DNA of 64,000 bases from Gemmatimonadaceae bacterium (lineage in GTDB: Bacteria; Gemmatimonadota; Gemmatimonadetes; Gemmatimonadales; Gemmatimonadaceae), in the NCBI GenBank assembly GCA_051859245.1, contig JBHYGA010000005.1, positions 288,001-352,000 of the forward strand, in the 5' to 3' direction. The position numbers were made by a program, and so were the translations under genes. Below are positions 1 through 11,934 of the stretch, one piece after another; position 1 is the stretch's first letter, and every line of letters begins with the position of its first letter. Below the pieces are notes generated by a model. It worked only from the letters and a program-made list of their open reading frames with translations. It searched no databases and was not told the DNA's origin.

Positions 1-152
1 ACACCAACGATTACAGCTCGCGAAGTGCCTTTGTTGCTCGCTGTCGTCGGGGTGCCGAGACCACGAGTCCCCTTTTGTGCTTCGGCGTTCGACATGGCCA
101 CGGCCAGGCCGAGTGAACACAAAGTAACGGTTTCAAACAATCTGCTTCGCAT
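1..152 (-). CDS. 5' part of a secreted, probable caspase-family (peptidase C14) protein, truncated by the window edge
   Basis: Not in the ORF track. Manual translation from ATG 152 gives MRSRLFETVTLCSLGLAVAMSNAEA-QKGTRGLGTPTTASNKGTSRAVIVGV: a signal peptide with AEA cleavage site, then RAVIVG resembling caspase strand beta1. It lies directly downstream of the complete caspase gene. Confidence 0.65.
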   Translation of the reverse strand, partial: MRSRLFETVTLCSLGLAVAMSNAEAQKGTRGLGTPTTASNKGTSRAVIVG

Positions 153-188
153 CAGGGCTCTCTTCTTCTGCTGTGCAAGCTATGTGAT

Positions 189-215
189 CGCAACGTGCGA
201 CCGCCGCACGTTGCG
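189..215. repeat. Perfect 11-bp intergenic hairpin CGCAACGTGCG-N5-CGCACGTTGCG
   Basis: Lies between the two caspase genes. No U-tract follows on the minus strand, so it is more likely an mRNA stabilising/processing stem than a terminator. Confidence 0.6.
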
Positions 216-224
216 TACAACAAA

Positions 225-2318
225 CTATTTCCGCTTCGGCACAGTATCGAGAATATCAATGCGGTGCGATAGCGTAGTCCAACCGACAATAGGCTTGGGA
301 TTTGAACGCCACTTGCCGCTATCATTTGGGCCTTTGTCGTTAGGACCGCGCGCGCCGTCGCAGGCGCCGAACGACTCGACGAGCGGCTGGAAGCTGAACT
401 GATCAGAGTTCACAACCATCTTCAGCATTTCACTGCCGACCGGTTCCAGCATTGGAATCGACTCACCGACAAGTATCCATTTGTTCATCTCGATCGGAGA
501 ATGTGGAATACCTGCCGGAGGCCACAGCACAGCTGGATCGGAGGTGTAGCCGCCGATCGCGATGGTCATGTACAACGACGAGATTTCGGCTTGCTGCAGC
601 TGTGCGTCTGCCCGAGCGTACACATCGTAACTTTTGCCCAGGAGAACTGAGTCGGGTATTCCCGCAGGGCGCAGACCACGCGGTGCCCCTGCTCCCGCAG
701 GCACTAAACGTATGTCCAACGTGAGACCTGTTGGCGGTGTTGGATTCTCGATGCTATTGAGCGACGTGATCGAAAGCGCGCGAATCAGCGGGCGGCACAG
801 CGCGTTGCCACGATAGCCCACGATAGAATCCACTCGCACTGCCTCGTCTGGCTGCGGGGCCAGGGCGACGCCGTTTACAAAGACCCGCGCAACGCCGAGA
901 CTCTGAGCAACGATGGCGTCTGCAGACGCGGAATCCACGATCACAAAGCGGCTCGAGTCTCGGCGTACTTCCGTCGCTAACGCCATGGCGCTCTTGTCGA
1001 AGTACACTTTCAATCGATCAACGCGATTCGCGCCGAGCGGAACACGCGACAGGACGGCGCGTGCACTGACCGGCAGCGTCGGTTTGGTGAACGAACTTCC
1101 GGCGGCGCCGAGCACGCTGCCTTGCTCATCGACGTACACGGCGAAAGCTCGTTCGGCAACCACAGAGTCAACGCGTACTCGCGCAATGGGAGCCGAGGAA
1201 AACTGCACCTCGCCAGAGCGATACACGTCGTAGTTCGCGGTCTTTCGCACACCGTGAATAGCGCCGGCGTCGAGGACCAGCCGACCACCCACTTCTCGCG
1301 CCGTGACGAACGGCTGTGCTGCCACGCCTTCGTTGGATTTGAAAATCAGAGCCGTCTGATCACCTTCGAGCTGCGGCACCTGCGGCAGCATTGCGCCGCG
1401 CACGTTCGATCGCAAACGCTGAATGAGCTCGTCGTACCGCAGTCCACGTGTTCCCGCGGCACCGTCAAGGGCGCGCGTCAGATGATACGTCATCGCGCCA
1501 ATCCACACACGCGTTCCGTCTTCATCATACGGAAGCTCCTGCGCCGTTTGGTCACTGCGCGCCGCGGTGATCAACGTGTGTCCACGCGCTTCGGTGAAGT
1601 CCGCGAGGCCGCCCGTATCTGGCAGCGCGATCGTGTCTGGTTTGGGGCCCTTGTCCCGCCCGACGGCATCACCATCTCCACGCGTCACGGTGCCAGAATA
1701 GCACGCATCAATAATGATCGTGACGTTCTCGGTGCCGAGCGCTTTCAGATACGCTCGAATGTCATCATCAAGCACCAGCTGCGACGGATTGTGCGCGTCC
1801 TCCGCATCAAACGGTACAAGTCCCTCGTCACGTCCGTCCGGCTCATCTTTGTCCACACCATCGGGCGCGTGCGATCCGTGACCAGAAAAGTAGATCACCA
1901 CCGCGTCATCTTTGGTCAGCGCGCGCTCAGCCAACCACTTGAATCCAGCCGCGATCCCGGCCTTGGTCGCCGAGGAGCCGAGCAATACGCGCGTGTCTTC
2001 GGTGGCGCCAAAGCCCCAGCGATTCAGGCTGACCTGCAGGCGTTTTACATCGTTCTCCGGGCCCTGCAAATCGGACAGCGGCTTTGTCCCCGCTCCAAAA
2101 TGCTGGTAGTCCGCAATGCCGATCAGCAGCGAAATCTTGCGAGGAGCACGCGTAACCTTCGTTCCGACGACATCCGCCGCGTGGAGACGCATCTCGGCGC
2201 TCGAGGCGCTGGCGAGAGCAACTGGGAGGGGACGCGACCACCCCAGGGAGATGGAAGCGCTTGCCAAGATGGTGGCGACGGAAGCCGTGCGGACAACCTG
2301 TTTGCGCGATGGGCGCAT
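225..2318 (-). CDS. Secreted caspase/metacaspase-family protease (C14) with C-terminal extension domains
   Basis: SLLIGIADY, LQGPENDV, catalytic His in YFSGHGS, catalytic Cys in IIDACYSG, AARSDQTAQE, QVPQLEG. N-terminal hydrophobic signal. LDAGAIHGV segment and DUF4384-like tail. Confidence 0.92.
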   Translation of the reverse strand: MRPSRKQVVRTASVATILASASISLGWSRPLPVALASASSAEMRLHAADVVGTKVTRAPRKISLLIGIADYQHFGAGTKPLSDLQGPENDVKRLQVSLNRWGFGATEDTRVLLGSSATKAGIAAGFKWLAERALTKDDAVVIYFSGHGSHAPDGVDKDEPDGRDEGLVPFDAEDAHNPSQLVLDDDIRAYLKALGTENVTIIIDACYSGTVTRGDGDAVGRDKGPKPDTIALPDTGGLADFTEARGHTLITAARSDQTAQELPYDEDGTRVWIGAMTYHLTRALDGAAGTRGLRYDELIQRLRSNVRGAMLPQVPQLEGDQTALIFKSNEGVAAQPFVTAREVGGRLVLDAGAIHGVRKTANYDVYRSGEVQFSSAPIARVRVDSVVAERAFAVYVDEQGSVLGAAGSSFTKPTLPVSARAVLSRVPLGANRVDRLKVYFDKSAMALATEVRRDSSRFVIVDSASADAIVAQSLGVARVFVNGVALAPQPDEAVRVDSIVGYRGNALCRPLIRALSITSLNSIENPTPPTGLTLDIRLVPAGAGAPRGLRPAGIPDSVLLGKSYDVYARADAQLQQAEISSLYMTIAIGGYTSDPAVLWPPAGIPHSPIEMNKWILVGESIPMLEPVGSEMLKMVVNSDQFSFQPLVESFGACDGARGPNDKGPNDSGKWRSNPKPIVGWTTLSHRIDILDTVPKRK

Positions 2319-2533
2319 TGGTGAGCCTCAAGAGGTGACAAGGTGCAGCGGTAGGCGACCCTCGCGGAAGGGCCAGAGCGCTCCCTCGGCGGGACGAACG
2401 GTGCTCAACAGCACCGACCGCCCTTCGGATCCCACCAGCTGATATCGGTTCGTCCCGTACTTGTCATTGTCCTTCACCGGCAGCAGAATAGGCGATCCCA
2501 AACGCCCAGGCGCTCGGTCGACGCGAGTGCTCG

Positions 2534-3214
2534 ATGGCATTTTCTCCCGGCACCGGCATCTCCTGCATGGATGAACGCTCGTTGAGCGAATTGCTCGTTA
2601 CTCTGCGCGATGGCTACGAGCACGAGCGCGACGTTGCATGGGCGGCTTGCTACAGTCAGTTTCGCGATTTGGTGTGGACCCGGGTGTTTTATGTTATCCG
2701 TACCATTCCGTGGCTCCCGGAGCCGCGCGAGGTCGTGGAAGAAATCACAAGCGATGTCTTCGTCGGGTTGCCGACGGCGGTGCGCGCGTATCGTGACAAT
2801 GGGAAAGGGGAGCAGTGGCTCAAGCAGGTGGCCGTGCGGACAGCGTTGCGGGCGCGGGAGCGTATTACAGGTGATTGGAAAAGACGCGATCCTTCTGCGT
2901 TGTCGGCCTCGCTCGATCGGCCTGGCCGCATCTACTCTTCGTTCGACCATCATGCGAATGACATCGTTGACGCGCTGGATGCGATCAAACGCGACGAGCT
3001 CCTGGAGCTCGAACGTCGGATCGACGTGATGCGAAGCAGTGCCGATCCGCGGCAGCAGCGGTGGGCAACATTTCTCGATTTGTATCGGGAAGGCTTCGGC
3101 TTTGCAGAGATCGGCCAGCGCATGGGGTTAACCGAGGGAACAGCTCGTAACTGGCTCGTGGAAATCAGGCGGCAGCTGGCAACACCGCCCGCCGAGGTGC
3201 GTCTGCATGGCTGA
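2534..3214 (+). CDS. ECF-type RNA polymerase sigma factor (start may be ATG 2567)
   Basis: Region 2-like EEITSDVF...WLKQVAVR and region 4 HTH GFAEIGQRMGLTEGTARNWL. Overlaps the next gene by 8 nt. Confidence 0.85.
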   Translation: MAFSPGTGISCMDERSLSELLVTLRDGYEHERDVAWAACYSQFRDLVWTRVFYVIRTIPWLPEPREVVEEITSDVFVGLPTAVRAYRDNGKGEQWLKQVAVRTALRARERITGDWKRRDPSALSASLDRPGRIYSSFDHHANDIVDALDAIKRDELLELERRIDVMRSSADPRQQRWATFLDLYREGFGFAEIGQRMGLTEGTARNWLVEIRRQLATPPAEVRLHG

Positions 3215-3953
3215 GCGTCACAGCAGCACGTCGGATCCCGACGATGACCCGTTGCGTCCGCTTCATGCGCCGGATGACGAGGACACGCAGCGTGTAGAAG
3301 CGATGCTCAGCTTGTCGAGTCGCGCGCCCGTTTCACTCGATGCCCGCGTCGCTTCTCGGCGTGAAGCCGGAGACCACGTACTGCTTCCGGTGCCGGAAAC
3401 TGAGCCCACGTCCACGCGCGAACATCGCTCTCCGGCGCGGCGATTCATTCTGCCCGCCGGCATCGCGGCCGCGGCTGTGCTCTCGTACTTCCTGTTCCCC
3501 CAGACGGAGAAGAGTTCGGCCGGTGATCAGCGATTGGCACAGAGCGATTCGAGTGTGCCCGCGAGCGCTTCCGACTCGGTCCACGAACCGGCGTCTCACC
3601 GCGACTCGTCGTCATCCCGCGCGGACCGACTGCCGAGCACCACGCCCGAACGCGGCGATGTTGCGCTGGGTTACCGTGGCGCGGGAACGGCGATCTTCAC
3701 GGCACGAATGCGCGACTTTCGCGAGACGACGGTGGATTCGGTAGCCGACGCCACACTGCGCGACACGACGTACAACATCATCATCTCGCATCCGACGGGT
3801 AACGCCGAACTCGCCGCGCTGGCCAAACGGATTGGGCAGGCGCTGACAGGTCGTGGTGTGAAGTTGTCAGCCGTGCACATTGACGAGGGCGGAGCCGCCG
3901 CTTCCATCGGCGCAGTAACCATTGAGGTTCGATCGGCAGATCGGATCCCCTGA
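3207..3953 (+). CDS. Putative anti-sigma factor: single TM, low-complexity linker, degenerate OmpA-like C-terminal domain
   Basis: Coupled to the sigma gene. TM segment FILPAGIAAAAVLSYFLF, Ser-rich linker, LGYRGAG, and C-terminal AKRIGQALTGRGV...G...VTIEV pattern. Confidence 0.7.
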   Translation: MAERHSSTSDPDDDPLRPLHAPDDEDTQRVEAMLSLSSRAPVSLDARVASRREAGDHVLLPVPETEPTSTREHRSPARRFILPAGIAAAAVLSYFLFPQTEKSSAGDQRLAQSDSSVPASASDSVHEPASHRDSSSSRADRLPSTTPERGDVALGYRGAGTAIFTARMRDFRETTVDSVADATLRDTTYNIIISHPTGNAELAALAKRIGQALTGRGVKLSAVHIDEGGAAASIGAVTIEVRSADRIP

Positions 3954-3997
3954 CCGATCCACGCGCCGCGCACCTTCTCCACGAAAGTTGACGCTGA

Positions 3998-5431
3998 CTA
4001 TCGACCGGGAATCCGGTCCGCAAACGGTGCCCAATCGAACACCGAGAGCGCGAAGTACAACTTCGGTTTTCCATACCCGTCAACAATGCGCACCTGCGAC
4101 GCATCGGCCACAACGTCACCAACGCGCGCGCCCACGAGCGATTGCTGCCGCATCCACATTGCGCCAGCGCTGACCTTCAGAAAACCGAGCGACACCGCAG
4201 TACCAATGCCGGCTCCGGTCACATCACCTGCGGCAACAACAACCTCAGGTAGCCACACCGCAAGGCCACTGCCGTCGCGGCGATCGAGGCCCCTCCAGGT
4301 GAAGCCCAGTGTGCCGCCGAGTCCAAAGCGACGGTCCGTCCGTCCGCTTTCATAAACGCGTGCTCCGCCATCCACATCCTCGGTCGCGTACGTCGGAAAC
4401 CGTCCGCCCGGTGCAGCGATGCCAGCAATCGCCACCGCCGGTCGAATGAACGGCTGGGGCTGCACAATGACCGTGTACTCGGCCACCTCACGACTTGCAA
4501 TGCGAGCCAGTTCGGCCTCGGTGCGCGGCTCTACGCGGATCGTGACGGACCGTCCGCTCGTGCGGCTCCCTTTCGCAACACCTGCGCTCCATTTCGAGCA
4601 GGAGTTCGCAACAATGCCAACGAGTCGTTCCGCACGATAGGCGCTGGCCAGCAGCGATTCAAAGTCTGCCAAGGCAGACTGCGCACGCACATCGAGCACG
4701 CGCACCGAATCGCGCAGCGCTTGCCATCGCGCGTCTTCGTACGATTGCCCGAGTGTGGCGACTCGCATGTTCTCCGTGGCACCACTCAGGGCAACCAGAG
4801 ACGAGAGCAACGACTCCGCCGTCGGCAGACGCACCGGCTCTTGTGCTCCGCATGACTGCCCCACACTGAGCCGGCGACGCAGCGGTTCCGCTGCCACTTC
4901 CGGTGCAACGTTGCGTCGCATCTGTTCAAGCGCGAGCAGTGTGGTTGTGATCGTTGGCTGCAACCCGCGCTCACCAAACACCGCTTCGTCGATTTGCATC
5001 AGGCTTCGCTCCGCCGTGCCCAGCGCGAGCGCGAGTGCCAGGCGCGCGTCAGCGACATTCTGTGCGGGCTCGATGAAGCCTGCGCCACGCGAACCCGAAA
5101 GTGCGGACCGTAGCTCGGGCACATACGGCGTGAGTCGGCTCGCGAAACCCGACAGCGCCTGCGCCTCCGGCAGTGGGACCGACGCGCTGGTCCGACTGAA
5201 GTTGTACAGCGCCGTGTTGGTGTTCACCACGTCGATCTCCACCGGTACATTATGCGGCAATCGGACCACCGCGTGACTTCCGAGCGCACTGGTGTCCGCC
5301 CGTACGCCGCGCTGTACAATCAGTCGCAGTGCTCCGGTCCCGTGATCGATTTCAACGCGCGCGCGCTGCGCGCGTGCATCAGTGGCGACGAGAGCAATCA
5401 GGACGAGGAGTATGACGGATCGCAAGCGCAT
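3998..5431 (-). CDS. Secreted/outer-membrane hypothetical protein, paralog A
   Basis: Signal peptide MRLRSVILLVLIALVATDARA-Q, beta-rich N-domain, helical middle, amphipathic beta-strand C-terminus (KLYFALSVFDW). Confidence 0.75.
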   Translation of the reverse strand: MRLRSVILLVLIALVATDARAQRARVEIDHGTGALRLIVQRGVRADTSALGSHAVVRLPHNVPVEIDVVNTNTALYNFSRTSASVPLPEAQALSGFASRLTPYVPELRSALSGSRGAGFIEPAQNVADARLALALALGTAERSLMQIDEAVFGERGLQPTITTTLLALEQMRRNVAPEVAAEPLRRRLSVGQSCGAQEPVRLPTAESLLSSLVALSGATENMRVATLGQSYEDARWQALRDSVRVLDVRAQSALADFESLLASAYRAERLVGIVANSCSKWSAGVAKGSRTSGRSVTIRVEPRTEAELARIASREVAEYTVIVQPQPFIRPAVAIAGIAAPGGRFPTYATEDVDGGARVYESGRTDRRFGLGGTLGFTWRGLDRRDGSGLAVWLPEVVVAAGDVTGAGIGTAVSLGFLKVSAGAMWMRQQSLVGARVGDVVADASQVRIVDGYGKPKLYFALSVFDWAPFADRIPGR

Positions 5432-5635
5432 GATGCTGGTTGGTTGGTGGGAACAAGGAGCCAGGCACAGAATGCCGGTGACGGTCATTCCGTGTCATTG
5501 CGCGCATCGCGTCAAACGGTGACGTTCCAGAGGTTTAGCGGCATTCAAAGTACAACGTGGTCAGACGCGAGTCCCGCAGCACCGAAGGGTCGCTTTGGGA
5601 TGCCAGACGAAGACACACACTATCACCGACACCAG

Positions 5636-7114
5636 ATGTCGCTTTCCCGCAAGCTTCTCACGGCGATGTTTCTCGCGACGGCGCTGCCAACACTGGCCCC
5701 CGCGCAGCCAACCACGGCTACCCGCGCGGCGGCAGTCGACACGTCGCGCGCTCGCACGCGACCCGCCCGCGTGGTGTCGTCCCGAGATCCGTGGACGGTT
5801 GTCTATGATCACGTTACAGAAACGATGAAAGTGAGCGACCATCGAGGTCGCATCCAGTCATCTTTTGCTGGCGCATCGTTGATTGATGGTCCGGTGGTCC
5901 GCATTCCACCCGACCGTCCGGTGGAAGTACGCATCACCAATGCGAACCCCATGTTGTACCGGTACGATGTTACAGGTCCGGTGGTACAGGAGCGTCGAGC
6001 GCGAAGCTGTCGTTCGGTGCTCGGGACATTTGCGCAAGCGGGCCTTCAGTTCAGCGCCGCGAACATTGCTGGCGTGCAAACCAAGTGGACCACCGACACG
6101 CTGATGCGCAGGGTGTTCTCGGCGTCTGACCTCGCACGGCTTGGTGGGACCGCCGTGCGCGGTGAACCGCTCAGCGACGCTGATCGTGCGCGTACGATTA
6201 GCCTCGTGCAAGAGCGTGTGGAGTCGTACGAATCACGGGCCGAAGCAATCGGTGATTTTGCCTCCACCATCGATGACTCGCTGGCACGAATCGCTGAACT
6301 CTCCGATGCGACGCCCTCTGGTACGATGCTCGACGGCCTCGCGGGTACGATTCGCAAATTCCTGCCCAGTGCAAACCGCTCTGTTGATGTTCCGCTGTCA
6401 CTTCGCGCACTCGAACAAGAGGCGCAGCAACCGGCTACGGTGCTGATGCAGCTTGCTGCGACCGGCGACAGTGATGTACGACCGCTTCGCATTCGTTTCG
6501 ATAGCGCGTTAACGCAGATCGCTGCAAGCTACCGAAAGCTGCAAGCGCAGCTGTATCAGATCGAACAATATCAACTTGGCGTTGATCAGCGTTGGACGCT
6601 TGACCCGAGCGCCGACTACCGCGCGGTACGCATTCGCATGGAGGCGACGTCAGGCTTTGCCGAGATTCCGCGCTTTAAAGCGGGAACAGTGGAGGCCTTG
6701 ATCAACCCGATCAGTCGAGTGGCGTGTAGTCTGGCTCCCGGCTTGACGATCGCGAACGCGCCACGTGCGTTTGCCCTCCGGAACGACACCATCGTGAGTG
6801 CCAATAAATCAGATCAGCGTGCGGCACCGGCCCTGCAGTTGCACCTCGACATCGTGGATTTTCCATTGCCGGTCGGCGTGCTCGCCGGAGTGGGACTGGG
6901 CGTGAATCAGCGACCGGATTGGTATCTCGGTGGGAGCTTTCGACTGACTGACATTGTGCGCCTGAATGCCGGTACGCTCTGGCAACGGGAAGAACAACTT
7001 GGCAGTGGTCGCGAGCTCGGTTCCATAGTGCCACCGGCGCAGCGCCCCGCATTTGATGCGAGGACGCAGAAGTTTGCGCCGGCGTTTTTCTGGGGAATCA
7101 GTTTGGTGCCGTGA
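5636..7114 (+). CDS. Secreted/outer-membrane hypothetical protein, paralog B
   Basis: Signal peptide MSLSRKLLTAMFLATALPTLAPA-Q. VVRIPPDRPVEVRITNANPMLYRY matches paralog A VVRLPHNVPVEIDVVNTNTALYNF. Ends in a beta-strand, AFFWGISLVP. Confidence 0.75.
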   Translation: MSLSRKLLTAMFLATALPTLAPAQPTTATRAAAVDTSRARTRPARVVSSRDPWTVVYDHVTETMKVSDHRGRIQSSFAGASLIDGPVVRIPPDRPVEVRITNANPMLYRYDVTGPVVQERRARSCRSVLGTFAQAGLQFSAANIAGVQTKWTTDTLMRRVFSASDLARLGGTAVRGEPLSDADRARTISLVQERVESYESRAEAIGDFASTIDDSLARIAELSDATPSGTMLDGLAGTIRKFLPSANRSVDVPLSLRALEQEAQQPATVLMQLAATGDSDVRPLRIRFDSALTQIAASYRKLQAQLYQIEQYQLGVDQRWTLDPSADYRAVRIRMEATSGFAEIPRFKAGTVEALINPISRVACSLAPGLTIANAPRAFALRNDTIVSANKSDQRAAPALQLHLDIVDFPLPVGVLAGVGLGVNQRPDWYLGGSFRLTDIVRLNAGTLWQREEQLGSGRELGSIVPPAQRPAFDARTQKFAPAFFWGISLVP

Positions 7115-7151
7115 CTTTCGAACTGACGTGAGCCTCTTGTGCACCGAAGTA

Positions 7152-7901
7152 TCAGTTTGTTGTCAGCCGATATCGATTGTAGTACACGTCGTCCCAGTTC
7201 TTGATGACCAGCCTGTGCGTGCTCGTGGTCCTCGGATACCAGTCCAATACGCAGAAGTCAGTATCGTCAACATCGCGTGCAACGACTCGGCCGTTCTGGT
7301 CATACACCCAGCAGTCAAGGTCTGTATCTCCGTCGCCATTCACGCGAATTGATGCCAGTACACCACCCTCAAACGCAATGCGAAACGTGTCCGTGCTGTT
7401 GGCGTCGACATCAAAGACACCTGATTTCGGTCCGTTGACGGCACCGCGTGATCCCGATGCGTTACGCTGCTGCAGCTGCGCCACCACCAAGGTGAGATTG
7501 GCATTGTCACGACCAGCTGCCTGAGCGGATGCCAGGAGTTGGCCGACGTCGAGAGAAGCCTGAGCTCCAGCCTTCTGAGGCCTCGGACCCGGCGCGCCCG
7601 CCTTGTCCGATTCAGGAACAAGGGAAAGCGGCCGCGTAGGGTTGTCGAGGAGGAGCTGCGCGGCGGCAGCGAGTGCCAATCCAGAGTTAGTGCGCTGACC
7701 ATAGTCCGCGAGCTGCGCGGCGAGCGAGACTGCTTCCACAGCGTTCTGCGTCTGGGGTGTACTCGCAGGCCTCGGACGAGCAGTGGCGCTTTCCTTTGAC
7801 GAAGGTATGCCTCCGGAAGTGGTGGCGCAGCCAGCTGCAGCGGCCGATAGCAGTACCAACGTTGAGTTGCGAGCAAAGCGGGTAGAAAACGAGTGCATCA
7901 T
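7152..7901 (-). CDS. Lipoprotein with helical N-domain and PPC-like beta-sandwich C-domain
   Basis: Lipobox AAAG-C, GSRGAVNGPK linker, GDGDTDLDCWVYDQNG motif typical of pre-peptidase C-terminal (PPC)-like domains. Confidence 0.75.
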   Translation of the reverse strand: MMHSFSTRFARNSTLVLLSAAAAGCATTSGGIPSSKESATARPRPASTPQTQNAVEAVSLAAQLADYGQRTNSGLALAAAAQLLLDNPTRPLSLVPESDKAGAPGPRPQKAGAQASLDVGQLLASAQAAGRDNANLTLVVAQLQQRNASGSRGAVNGPKSGVFDVDANSTDTFRIAFEGGVLASIRVNGDGDTDLDCWVYDQNGRVVARDVDDTDFCVLDWYPRTTSTHRLVIKNWDDVYYNRYRLTTN

Positions 7902-8146
7902 GCGCCTCAGAATGTGTGTGGAGCGTCAAAACATGCGCGCTGTGAACTGGTTACTTATGGCGGCTCGCAGTCGCGATGTCATTGGCCTCGGCTTGGGGCA
8001 CCACCGCGTTGACAACAGCTGCGGCATCGCGGTCCGTTCCGGCCGCGAATGAGCTTCGCAGCAAGCAGTACCATTTGCACTTTCGACGGCGTCGCACGCG
8101 CGCAGGAAACCTTTCCGGCGCGTGTCGATCGAGCTGCAGACTTTCG

Positions 8147-10405
8147 CTATCGCTTTATGGTATCGTTCCCGATACGTGCTCTGGGCGAACTCCTGAGACC
8201 GAGCGCAGACCACGCAGCCATAATCTCCTTGTAGCCTTGTGCATTAACAGGCGCGCCTTCGTTACTATTTCTCACCAGTTGAGACGCTCCGGCCGAGTCG
8301 CTCGCGAGTGCGCGCAACGCGGATTTCGTCGCGATGCGCGTTTCTGAATCGTACGCACTGTTCGGTGCGTCGATCAGTGCCATAGCCTCTCGATGATCTC
8401 CCGCGCGAGAACGAGAGAGCGCTGCCAGCGTACGCGTCATCACGTTCTGTGGCTCCAGCGCTAACGCTCGCGCGTGCAGCACGCGGGCGTCGTCAACGCG
8501 TCCCGCCAGATCGAGCGCGTGCGCATACGCCGATATTCCGTCTGCAGAGAATGAATCTGCGGCATACGCCCGACGCCCCGACGATACGGCTTCATCAATG
8601 CGCCCCGACGCAACGAGCATTTCCGAATACCAACGAAGTGTTGTGGGTGATGCGGAATCAAGTTGAATCGCTTGACGGAACTCGGCGTCCGAACGAGCAA
8701 GCTGCCCGCTTTGACGATACAAGAGCGCGAGTGCAGCGTGAGGTTCGGCGTTGAGGCTGTCGAGACGGAGCGCGCGGGAGGCTGCAGTGCGCGACGCTTC
8801 ATACACCGAGTCCAGCGAAGTACCCGACCAGAGAGGCAGCTGCGCCAACGTTGTCGACAGCGCCGCCCACGCGCGTCCAAAACTCGAATCACGCCGCACC
8901 GCTTCGTTAAACAGGGCTGCGGCCTCCGCAAGACCATCGTAGCCGCGTGACCGAGCGTGCAAGCCGCGAAGAAACGCGTCATACGCAGCGATGTCGGCGG
9001 CGCCGTATTGCACGGCTTTATAGTCACCGTTCGCGAGTTGTATGCGCAGCGCTCCCACGATGTCGCGAGTGATGTCGTCCTGCAGCTCAAACACGTCACG
9101 CATCTGCCGCTCAAACTGATCGGCCCACAATACGTGATCATCAGCGGTGCGGGTGAGCTCCATCGTGACACGCAGTCGGTCCCCGCTTCGGCGCAGCGTT
9201 CCGGAGAGCACGGTGGCAACGCCGAGGCGTTTCCCGGCATCACGTCCGCTGAGGCCATCGGTGAGCATGCGCGACGCCGCAGCGCGCGCAGCCACGCGCA
9301 ACCCAGGCACTTTCCTGAGCGCGACCGTGAGCTCTTCAGACAATCCGACGCCAAGAAAGATGCTGGCGGAGTCAGCGGCGAGTGTCTCAAGTGGGAGCAC
9401 GGCGACCGAAGGATCGATCTTTACATCGCCGTCTGACAGCACCTTCCACGTGGCTCCGACTGCTGCGACAACGAGTGCGGCGACTGCGAGCCAGCGGCGT
9501 TTGGTTGACCGCTCCGAAACCTGGGATGCCACACCATGCTCGCGTGACACCGGGATATTGTCCAGCAATCGAAGCACGTCCAGCGCCTGTGGTGGACGCG
9601 CTGCAGGATCCTTTTCAAGACACTGCATCACAAGTGCGTCGAGCAGCGGCGGAACGTCCGGCCGTAGCTCAATCAGCGCGCGCGGCCGCTCCACCACGTG
9701 TGCGGCGATCAGCGCTGCGGTCGTCGAGCGCGTGAACGGCGGCATGCCCGTGAGCATCTCGTAGGCCGTGCAACCGAGCGCGTAAATATCGATACGATGA
9801 TCGGCTGTTGGGTCAGCTGTCGCCTGCTCGGGCGCCAGATATTGCGGTGTGCCCACCACAACGCCAACGCCGGTTCGCTGTGATGCATCGCTGTCGTCAC
9901 CAAGTGTCGCCGCTGCGAGTGCGCGGGCGATGCCAAAGTCGCTCACGGCAGCACTGCCGCCAGAAATCAGAATATTGTCGGGCTTGATGTCGCGGTGAAC
10001 AATGCCCTGCGCGTGCGCCGCACTGAGCGCGCGCGCGACGTCGCGAAGAATCGATACCGCTTCGCTCACCGAAAAGCGATCGCCGCGGGCGATGCGCCCG
10101 CGGAGCGATTCTCCCGGCACAAACGGCATCGTGTAATACGCGACGTCTTCCACAACACCCGACGAGATCACGGTCACCACGTGCGGGTGCGATAGACTCG
10201 CAGCTATGCGCGCTTCGCGGGCGAATCGTTCCGCATTCATCCCACTGGCCAACTCGGCGGGCAACGCTTTGACAACGATGTCGCGCGCAAGCGCCGTGTC
10301 TCGGGCGACGAACACCCGTGACATTCCGCCACCGCCCAGTTCCCGTCCGAGCACACATGACGGGCCGAGCGCAGATTGAAGTTGATCGCGGAGGGTGTCT
10401 CTCAT
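8147..10405 (-). CDS. Hanks-type Ser/Thr kinase with TM, TolB-N-like domain and TPR repeats
   Basis: LGGGGMSRVF, VVK, HRDIKPDN, DFG, GTPQYLAPE, TM, SVAVLPL...GLSEEL, TPRs. Confidence 0.92.
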   Translation of the reverse strand: MRDTLRDQLQSALGPSCVLGRELGGGGMSRVFVARDTALARDIVVKALPAELASGMNAERFAREARIAASLSHPHVVTVISSGVVEDVAYYTMPFVPGESLRGRIARGDRFSVSEAVSILRDVARALSAAHAQGIVHRDIKPDNILISGGSAAVSDFGIARALAAATLGDDSDASQRTGVGVVVGTPQYLAPEQATADPTADHRIDIYALGCTAYEMLTGMPPFTRSTTAALIAAHVVERPRALIELRPDVPPLLDALVMQCLEKDPAARPPQALDVLRLLDNIPVSREHGVASQVSERSTKRRWLAVAALVVAAVGATWKVLSDGDVKIDPSVAVLPLETLAADSASIFLGVGLSEELTVALRKVPGLRVAARAAASRMLTDGLSGRDAGKRLGVATVLSGTLRRSGDRLRVTMELTRTADDHVLWADQFERQMRDVFELQDDITRDIVGALRIQLANGDYKAVQYGAADIAAYDAFLRGLHARSRGYDGLAEAAALFNEAVRRDSSFGRAWAALSTTLAQLPLWSGTSLDSVYEASRTAASRALRLDSLNAEPHAALALLYRQSGQLARSDAEFRQAIQLDSASPTTLRWYSEMLVASGRIDEAVSSGRRAYAADSFSADGISAYAHALDLAGRVDDARVLHARALALEPQNVMTRTLAALSRSRAGDHREAMALIDAPNSAYDSETRIATKSALRALASDSAGASQLVRNSNEGAPVNAQGYKEIMAAWSALGLRSSPRARIGNDTIKR

Positions 10406-10511
10406 TTGCCAAGGGTAGTCAACCGGCGCAATATAGCGCTGGGCGAGTGTACAGCACCGCCTGCGCCACACACTCTCTTGCCAACATATGACTTCAGGAC
10501 CGCCGGATGTC

Positions 10512-11039
10512 ATGCACAGCTACTCCCTGATCCTCCAGGAAATCCTCCGCAGCTACACAATCCCCCGGAACGGCTACCACGGCGTAGTCCACTGGGCTCG
10601 TGTGCTCGAAAACGGCCTGCGCATTGCCGAGTCCAACGGCGCTGACACCGAAGTCGTCACGCTGTTTGCACTGTTTCACGATTCGCGTCGCATCAACGAA
10701 CACCGCGATCACGGCCACGGTCAACGCGGCGGTGAGTTCGCGCGCTCGCTGCGCGGCACGCTCGTACATCTCGACGACTCGCGCTTTGATTTGCTCTACA
10801 CCGCGTGCGAGTTGCACACCGACGGGCACACCACCGGCGATCCAACAATCCTCGCCTGCTGGGACGCTGATCGGCTGGACCTTGGGCGCGTGGGCATCAC
10901 GCCGAGGCCCAATCGACTCTGCACGGACACCGCGCGCGATCTGCTGGATTGGGCGCACTTCCGTGCGACAACGGCGCACGTACCAACGGCCGTGCTGGAG
11001 TCGTGGAACATGTCGCCCAAACTTGCCCCACTCAGGTAG
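10512..11039 (+). CDS. HD-domain phosphohydrolase
   Basis: HGVVHWARV, LFHDSRR, HG, CWDADRLDLGRVG. Confidence 0.85.
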   Translation: MHSYSLILQEILRSYTIPRNGYHGVVHWARVLENGLRIAESNGADTEVVTLFALFHDSRRINEHRDHGHGQRGGEFARSLRGTLVHLDDSRFDLLYTACELHTDGHTTGDPTILACWDADRLDLGRVGITPRPNRLCTDTARDLLDWAHFRATTAHVPTAVLESWNMSPKLAPLR

Positions 11040-11538: not shown

Positions 11539-11934
11539 GTGGCCTACAACGGACCGGTGCGCCGATGGGATCTGTTCTGGGTTGATCTCGAACCGCGCGT
11601 TGGACGTAAGCAGGGCGGAGATCGGAGACCGGCCGTCATCGTTTCCAATGACGGCGTCAACGCGCAGCTCGCAGTGGTCACGATGTTGTCGATAACAAAA
11701 GCTGACGGCAAGAAGCGAAAGCCGTACCCGTTCGAAGTGCTGTTGCCGGTTGATACGATTACCGCGGAGCACGCGAGCATCGTCATGCCGCAACAGATCC
11801 GAACGATTTCGAAAATGCGATTGCTGGAAAAGATCGGTCAGCTGACCGACCCATCTCAGCAAGCCGAGATCGAGAGCCGTATGCTCGAGCATCTCGGGAT
11901 CCAGTTCGAGGCTGAAGGGCTCGACGATTTGTGA
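11539..11934 (+). CDS. mazF: PemK/MazF-family toxin
   Basis: WVDLEPRVGRKQGGDRRPAVIVSND, QIRTISKMRL. Confidence 0.9.
   Translation: MAYNGPVRRWDLFWVDLEPRVGRKQGGDRRPAVIVSNDGVNAQLAVVTMLSITKADGKKRKPYPFEVLLPVDTITAEHASIVMPQQIRTISKMRLLEKIGQLTDPSQQAEIESRMLEHLGIQFEAEGLDDL

Follow-up and report, generated by a model that had tools for sequence, protein, structure and literature searches.

The first 8 kb of a 64,000-nucleotide stretch of a Gemmatimonadaceae genome (assembly GCA_051859245.1, contig JBHYGA010000005.1, positions 288,001 to 352,000; G000:C5:288001-352000 in our numbering, where G000 is the host genome), hereafter the window, carry a conserved module centred on two exported caspase-like proteases of the C14 family, casp1 and casp2. 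It further comprises an extracytoplasmic function (ECF)-type sigma factor with its anti-sigma factor, a lipoprotein, and two paralogs, parA and parB, of an exported family that we call famX. At six of the seven Arg-Gly (RG) sites previously listed in these proteins, a basic residue followed by Gly ([RK]-G) is conserved in position among homologues. These conserved pairs are likely the sites at which the proteases cut. Sequence comparison thus points, tentatively and at somewhat less than an even chance, to an extracytoplasmic metacaspase-like module whose proteases would cut, at [RK]-G, both themselves and the exported proteins encoded beside them.

Both proteases belong to Peptidase_C14, with PF00656 scores of 80 bits for casp1 and 60.7 bits for casp2 at a cut-off of 21.4, and they are encoded by the only two C14 genes of the host genome, both located in the caspase block. 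casp1 (225..2318, minus strand; 697 amino acids, aa) consists of a signal peptide, the C14 domain and a long C-terminal region that resembles that of DUF4384-bearing homologues; its closest solved relatives are GSU0716 (PDB 3bij, 9.2e-10) and metacaspases. The window holds only the hydrophobic N-terminus of casp2 (1..152, minus strand). The whole protein has 1033 aa, ends 2949 bases left of the window and is composed of a signal peptide, the C14 domain (Peptidase_C14, 2.2e-16) and TPR repeats that match many TPR families. In an alignment of 13 related caspases, on which the conservation counts for these enzymes are based, the catalytic dyad of casp1 is invariant (13/13), with H147 in an SGHG and C206 in a DxC context. 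Equally invariant (13/13) and aligned with AtMC4 are D204, two residues before the catalytic Cys, and D90, six residues past the Leu of LQGPEND. The S1 pocket of metacaspases is acidic and Arg/Lys-specific through these two Asp positions (PMC2064784). casp1 therefore has the acidic S1 pocket of metacaspases (Asp at Cys-2 plus an upstream Asp), which supports the inference that the exported casp1 and casp2 are metacaspase-like, with an expected Arg/Lys specificity at P1.

Four RG sites were followed in the caspases. R213-G214 of casp1 (1677..1682, minus strand) lies seven residues past the catalytic Cys, where a variable linker begins; T212 and R213 are present in all 13 related caspases and G214 in eight of them. 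R245-G246 (1581..1586, minus strand), absent from the earlier list, marks the end of the same linker, ahead of the next conserved strand, with RG in 8/13 and Arg in 11/13. In the C-terminal region, R657-G658 (GARGPN; 345..350, minus strand) is RG in 8/9 long-form caspases. The RG of casp2 (aa 30-31; 60..65, minus strand) stands just past the predicted signal-peptide cut AEA|Q, and [TE]RG follows the signal peptide in all three casp2-like proteins (those of the window, L020 and L051, the prefix L denoting loci in our collection).

The famX paralogs parA (3998..5431, minus strand; 477 aa from M at 5431) and parB (5636..7114, plus strand; 492 aa from M at 5636) are both exported; as in casp1, casp2 and the lipoprotein, the sequence opens with basic residues ahead of a hydrophobic segment. 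They are distant relatives (BLASTP E 6e-6) that a single profile matches at 1.4e-163 and 6.1e-76. parA retrieved 192 cluster representatives at E ≤0.001, and parB nine homologues in a set of 5.8 billion proteins. The AlphaFold model of parA (predicted local distance difference test, pLDDT, 87.4; predicted template modelling score, pTM, 0.75) shows, after the signal peptide, an N-terminal beta-sandwich (residues 23-86), a helical bundle (131-275) and a C-terminal beta domain (281-465), the last being a small beta-barrel whose own model reached a pLDDT of 91.7. The only long stretch with pLDDT <50 (103-127), a predicted disordered linker that separates the beta-sandwich from the body of helical bundle and barrel, holds the RG (residues 115-116; 5084..5089, minus strand). 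The RG of parB, R188-G189 in TAVRGEP (6158..6163, plus strand), likewise lies in a linker. Position 188 is Arg in 9/10 sequences and Lys in 1/10, and G189 is found in 10/10, including a homologue of 31% identity with differing surroundings. In a famX alignment of 41 rows that covers both branches, the motif Gly is kept in at least 90% and the consensus is RG; the linker itself varies among homologues in both length and sequence. A complex prediction for residues 50-340 of casp1 with parA (score 0.00, mark 0.32) is evidence neither way.

Linker [RK]G was counted in 99 full-length famX representatives, with expected values obtained from shuffles of each linker. The counts were 40 versus 27.6 expected in the whole set and 30 versus 17.7 in the 50 closest representatives. 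When all dipeptides were scanned in the linkers of these 50, RG ranked fourth (25 versus 14.7; z 3.47) and KG seventh (9 versus 4.1; z 2.8). Only LP, PE and VE ranked above RG, and LP and PE are part of a conserved Y-x-P-E motif where the linker starts. One subfamily (for example P0023, P0029, P0050 and P0052) has a second linker motif about 10-20 residues past the RG, approximately [ST]-[ML]-L-P followed by a Pro-rich stretch, which partly explains why LP is the most enriched dipeptide.

famX matched nothing in Pfam, NCBIfam or PADLOC, and Foldseek returned no match at E ≤0.001, either for the whole model against the PDB or for the C-terminal domain. With VIA-align, the whole model resembled nothing but generic helical bundles (Z up to 9.1). 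The C-terminal domain, an up-and-down barrel, matched natural chains weakly (Z 4-6), small outer-membrane (OM) barrels and soluble barrels alike, among them OmpA/OmpW/PagL-type and surface-lipoprotein barrels, and its best match was a designed barrel (Z 8.8). In the ESM Atlas the closest clusters consist of hypothetical proteins without a name; among named clusters PagL comes nearest (0.75), which is a lead only.

The lipoprotein (7152..7901, minus strand; Cys25 after a hydrophobic stretch) consists of a helical N-terminal part followed by a domain with an invariant GDGDTDLD motif. Its RG (7443..7448, minus strand) belongs to a longer motif, [RK]GAxGGP, which is placed where the two parts meet, about 35 residues ahead of GDGDTDLD. 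In an alignment of the window protein with six protein-set homologues and eight from genomes of the phylum, the site is [RK]G in 15/15 (seven Arg, eight Lys). The lipobox Cys is confined to the window protein and its two closest homologues, the others having ordinary signal peptides. A profile of the family found matches in 32 of 401 phylum genomes, about nine of them nearly full-length. The pattern GDGDTDLD...YD..G may resemble the PPC domain; the lipoprotein gave no Pfam match to PF04151 (PPC) at E ≤0.01. A PDB profile search with its second half yielded non-significant subtilisin-like C-terminal domains only (E 0.56-0.66).

Gene order ties famX, and less often the lipoprotein family, to the caspases. 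Among informative loci from other genomes and metagenomes, a C14 gene adjoins famX in 12 of 13. It lies within 7.5 kb of famX in nine of the ten genome loci with flank (L004-L008, L019, L020, L022 and L023), where the two genes often abut or overlap, and it adjoins famX in each of the three metagenome loci whose flank suffices (L052, L054 and L057). Eight further records were too short for the famX flank to be judged (L003, L053, L055, L056, L058, L059 and two G142 fragments). The sole caspase-less famX locus, L021, has a linker without [RK]G, and all five metagenome copies of famX have the linker RG. In L022 (6644-8168) the famX homologue was matched in two pieces, residues 30-411 and 427-490, which lie in different frames and so suggest a frameshift or an assembly error.

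The remaining components recur in other arrangements. L046 and L047 share the order PPC-caspase, casp1 orthologue (41% identity), anti-sigma, sigma (58-59%), transmembrane (TM) protein and lipoprotein, the TM protein being like the sensor part of a kinase encoded in the window, and L048 agrees with their right-hand part as far as its contig extends. In L051 the lipoprotein gene shares the locus with an M48 gene and with orthologues of casp2 and casp1 (42.5% for the latter), whereas L050 has a kinase, a PKD protein and a TPR-CHAT protein, directly followed by the lipoprotein. In L004 and L006 the sigma orthologues are placed after a PPC-caspase and famX. A constant co-occurrence of famX and the lipoprotein family was considered and rejected by profile searches of the 401 phylum genomes. 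Judged by gene content, the module is combinatorial, with the caspase as the apparent hub and sigma/anti-sigma, famX and the lipoprotein as alternative spokes.

The sigma gene (2534..3214, plus strand; 226 aa) encodes a divergent ECF-type factor with a weak Sigma70_ECF match (25.9 bits; cut-off 21.1); TIGR02937 (36.7 versus 42.9), Sigma70_r2 and r4_2 remained below their cut-offs. Its orthologues, with 54-59% identity, were found in five loci (L004, L006, L046, L047 and L048). The adjacent gene (3207..3953, plus strand; 248 aa) starts before the sigma stop at 3214 and encodes a protein with one TM helix (aa 80-98) and a periplasmic part of about 150 aa. A word-based search with this protein found only itself. 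It is placed as an anti-sigma orthologue by position and by 31-33% identity to the products of the genes next after the sigma orthologue in L046, L047, L004 and L006. The single TM helix and the gene order overlapping sigma are those of zinc-binding anti-sigma (ZAS) factors. The zinc motif of class I ZAS proteins is missing: neither zf-HC2 nor another Pfam domain matched the window protein, which has a gap where the four orthologues keep H-x3-C-x2-C. The window protein has gained a Ser-rich periplasmic insertion of about 32 residues, and its R157-G158 (3675..3680, plus strand) lies within this lineage-specific segment. Its linker is Ser-rich and exposed and has two RGs; in the anti-sigmas of L046 and L047, KG occurs elsewhere in the juxtamembrane linker.

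A promoter-like motif links several genes of the block. The strict form TGAC-N15-CGnCAT occurs four times within 14.2 kb, compared with 81 times in the 4.7-Mb genome, and all four copies are upstream of genes in the correct orientation. One precedes parB (TGAC-N15-CGGCAT, 5520..5544, plus strand) and one the lipoprotein gene (TGAC-N15-CGCCAT, 7957..7981, minus strand). The other two are located about 6.2 kb left of the window (L001 11725-11749, minus strand, and 11813-11837, plus strand), with an M48-TPR peptidase gene and a 180-aa open reading frame (ORF) downstream. The parB and M48-TPR copies are nearly identical. Relaxed versions are found upstream of parA (N16) and of casp1 (-10 element CGATAT). 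Elsewhere, L004 and L006 have the strict motif near the PPC-caspase gene start and L048 has it ahead of the lipoprotein operon; the strict pattern was not found at the expected places in L046, L047 and L051. The sigma factor, one of two encoded in the block, would likely drive parB, the lipoprotein gene and the two upstream genes through this shared motif.

A preliminary description of this DNA, made from the sequence alone, had proposed that every exported protein of the locus carries RG at a linker or domain boundary. Profiles, ORFs and N-termini bear out its gene placements (sigma, TM anti-sigma, paralogs and lipoprotein), its exported C14 protease with an intact His/Cys dyad and its probable second caspase. 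All seven RG sites that it listed were recovered at their positions, and the chosen pairs are indeed conserved in linkers or at domain boundaries, in the famX paralogs, the lipoprotein and both caspases; conservation fails in the anti-sigma. Its caveat that RG is frequent in GC-rich genomes holds for the counts, because composition explains the number. The seven proteins contain 24 RG dipeptides versus 22.9 expected from their Arg and Gly content (protein by protein, 7/6.3, 7/4.6, 0/1.8, 3/1.4, 4/4.3, 2/3.1 and 1/1.4 seen/expected), and a numerical enrichment was rejected.

Several observations weigh against cleavage at [RK]-G. A two-residue motif is weak, and its overall number here is at chance. 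The invariant T212-R213 after the catalytic Cys could have a structural or catalytic function and not be cut at all, and the three closest casp1 orthologues lack the second linker RG (R245). Outside the 50 closest famX representatives, the other 49 show no enrichment of linker [RK]G (10 versus 9.6 expected). The lipoprotein motif is kept in L044, L045 and L049, which have housekeeping neighbours and no caspase-fold protease within 6.5 kb, so that it may be structural or serve another protease. Full-length famX and the lipoprotein occur together in G000 only, G163 combining famX with a lipoprotein match limited to the C-terminal domain; since the two families are found in different genomes elsewhere, the combination in the window is not a fixed system. 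The RG of the anti-sigma is present in none of the four orthologues at the aligned place, and two of them (L004 and L006) have no linker [RK]G.

Some of these points would be expected if [RK]-G had a structural or binding role and were not cut. The caspases would then have other targets, for example foreign or damaged proteins of the envelope, and famX would be their OM or periplasmic partner, perhaps an anchor, a chaperone or an aid to export; no cascade would be needed to account for the synteny. The chance-level count fits this alternative, as do the invariance of TR, which behaves like an active-site element, and the lipoprotein motif, which is longer than a P1-P1' pair and persists without a protease neighbour in 3/8 loci; the weak resemblance of the famX barrel to OmpA/OmpW/PagL-type and surface-lipoprotein barrels points the same way. 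A structural role of the famX motif is nevertheless unlikely, because its linker is variable in length, otherwise unconserved and modelled with low confidence. The interchange of Arg and Lys before a fixed Gly is what a basic P1 residue would show, and the one famX locus without a caspase is also without the motif. On balance, a structural or binding role is considered somewhat unlikely.

It is rather improbable that the pairs are true processing sites for another envelope protease, M48-TPR or CHAT, with the C14 caspases otherwise employed. Such a protease is at hand: the M48-TPR gene, 4.3 kb to the left of the window start, has the same promoter motif, and other M48-TPR genes are neighbours of famX (L019) or of the caspases (L051). 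In L050 the lipoprotein gene comes immediately after a TPR-CHAT gene, and the genome of that locus (G298, 93% complete) has two CHAT genes and no PF00656 match. The constant neighbour of famX, however, is C14 (12/13) and not M48 (1/13), and Arg/Lys-Gly specificity is not a known property of M48 metalloproteases. The CHAT case amounts to a variant of the proposed caspase module, because CHAT is itself a caspase-fold protease.

Other genes surround the module. Left of the window are genes for an RHS/DUF6531 protein, the M48-TPR peptidase, a 1311-aa WD40 protein, a PEP-CTERM protein, a 1024-aa CHAT protein and a second sigma/anti-sigma pair. The RHS/DUF6531 protein, exported and 412 aa long, is encoded directly downstream of casp2 (L001 13816-15054, minus strand), and its gene is probably co-transcribed with casp2, as it overlaps the casp2 gene end by a few bases. 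Directly upstream of the lipoprotein gene lies a Ser/Thr kinase gene (8147..10513, minus strand) whose product has a TM helix and TPR repeats. Its kin recur near famX or lipoprotein homologues (L054 5444-7108, L050 171-3425, L044 12816-14513 and L046 3707-4285), either as kinases or as a stand-alone TM protein resembling residues 342-548 of the window kinase. The kinase may be part of the caspase module. After the cluster of caspase, famX, sigma and anti-sigma genes, L004 (8543-11940) and L006 (13486-16868) encode SIR2-TIR and nSTAND1 NTPase proteins, types typical of defence or conflict systems.

This setting raises the alternative of an envelope conflict or defence island, in which attack would trigger the caspases, famX would be a latent membrane-damaging effector and sigma would amplify expression. 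Related loci contain SIR2-TIR, nSTAND1 NTPase, WD40-caspase, TPR-CHAT and a phage-tail-tube-like gene, and RHS/DUF6531, CHAT and WD40 proteins are present in the block around the window. The famX layout of cap, cleavable linker and body would suit a latent effector. The spread is patchy: the famX profile matched 7 of the 401 phylum genomes, and a single-protein search with parA found only its own genome, with no match in the genomes of 60 relatives (0/60). Against this stands the PADLOC result, in which casp1 and casp2 matched only a generic 'caspase' model and famX, the lipoprotein, sigma and anti-sigma matched none; the famX fold searches, with their weak matches, likewise gave no gasdermin-like or pore-forming fold. 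A conflict or defence island is rather improbable on this evidence.

Under the proposed module, the caspases would mature by excision of the variable linker, starting at T-R213|G and ending, in most relatives, at the second R|G. The active caspase would cut parA and parB in the linker, freeing the N-terminal domain, and would cut the lipoprotein family at [RK]|GAxGGP, parting the helical part from the GDGDTDLD domain. Cleavage of the anti-sigma by a caspase would be the weakest step, possible, yet unsupported by conservation. The preliminary description had envisaged a periplasmic cascade in which cleavage at R|G frees the sigma factor. Of this, the exported metacaspase-like enzymes, their conserved neighbours and the conserved RGs find support, and a periplasmic cascade is plausible. 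That a caspase cut releases sigma is weakly supported, as the anti-sigma RG belongs to an insertion that the four orthologues lack and two of them (L004 and L006) are without linker [RK]G. By analogy with other systems, a fuller scheme can be drawn, a periplasmic zymogen cascade with a shared small-x-[RK]|G signal, in which famX and the lipoprotein would be latent effectors unleashed in a gasdermin-like manner and sigma would supply the substrates; this we regard as unlikely.

Bacterial gasdermin systems and Craspase (Csx29)-Csx30-sigma encode a caspase-fold protease beside its substrate; the cut falls in a flexible segment and frees an effector or a sigma-binding protein. These systems are cytoplasmic and triggered by phage or RNA. 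The window locus differs in being extracytoplasmic, and neither a gasdermin fold nor CRISPR genes were found in it. Caspase homologues are widespread in bacteria, and to our knowledge the natural substrates and roles of bacterial C14 proteases are largely not established. Here the genome itself nominates substrates, as three exported families encoded beside the proteases each have a basic-Gly pair in a linker, so that the open question of bacterial caspase targets becomes one of simple cleavage assays. If the proposed cleavage is correct, these families would constitute the first defined natural substrate set, with a recognition motif, for bacterial C14 caspases. The analysis also adds famX, an uncharacterised exported family of about 480 aa whose constant neighbour is a caspase gene. 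Searches of the literature on bacterial and exported caspases, ECF sigma pairs and DUF4384 found neither a shared [RK]-G signal nor famX described.

The His/Cys dyad and the S1 Asp pair of casp1 are common to metacaspases and orthocaspases (AtMC4/AtMC9, Yca1, TbMCA2, cyanobacterial MaOC1 and the bacterial GSU0716), and orthocaspase activity requires autoprocessing (PMC5756287). The window proteases differ from these enzymes by their signal peptides, by a long C-terminal region or TPR repeats, and by their genetic link with an ECF sigma factor and with exported families that have [RK]-G in common. Conserved operons of metacaspase and sigma-70 genes have been reported in Myxococcus, Anaeromyxobacter, Haliangium, Sorangium, Ralstonia and Fibrobacter, and in many prokaryotic metacaspases the N-terminus contains helices, likely signal peptides (Asplund-Samuelsson et al. 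2012, PMC3501461). In the consulted passages, that survey proposes no mechanism, substrates or motif and names no Gemmatimonadota example, famX or lipoprotein family.

Two ECF systems share features with the window locus. The ECF54 group has CHAT, subtilase or carboxypeptidase genes in its context, and proteolytic control has been proposed (PMC8999054). The window sigma resembles it in having protease neighbours that include the caspase fold; ECF54 is described without an anti-sigma in the consulted part of that work, and the window locus has one. In DdvS/DdvA of Myxococcus xanthus, an ECF sigma is paired with a TM anti-sigma bearing a periplasmic TPR-CHAT domain, and proteolysis is proposed to precede sigma release, the CHAT active site being incomplete (PMC11506125). 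Both that system and the window locus couple an extracytoplasmic caspase-fold protease to an ECF sigma/anti-sigma pair. In DdvA, however, the protease is fused to the anti-sigma, whereas here the C14 proteins are separate and have complete dyads, and the window anti-sigma, with a periplasmic part of about 150 aa, contains neither a protease domain nor a zinc motif. With the module, protease-coupled ECF signalling would reach beyond fused CHAT anti-sigmas and include free C14 enzymes.

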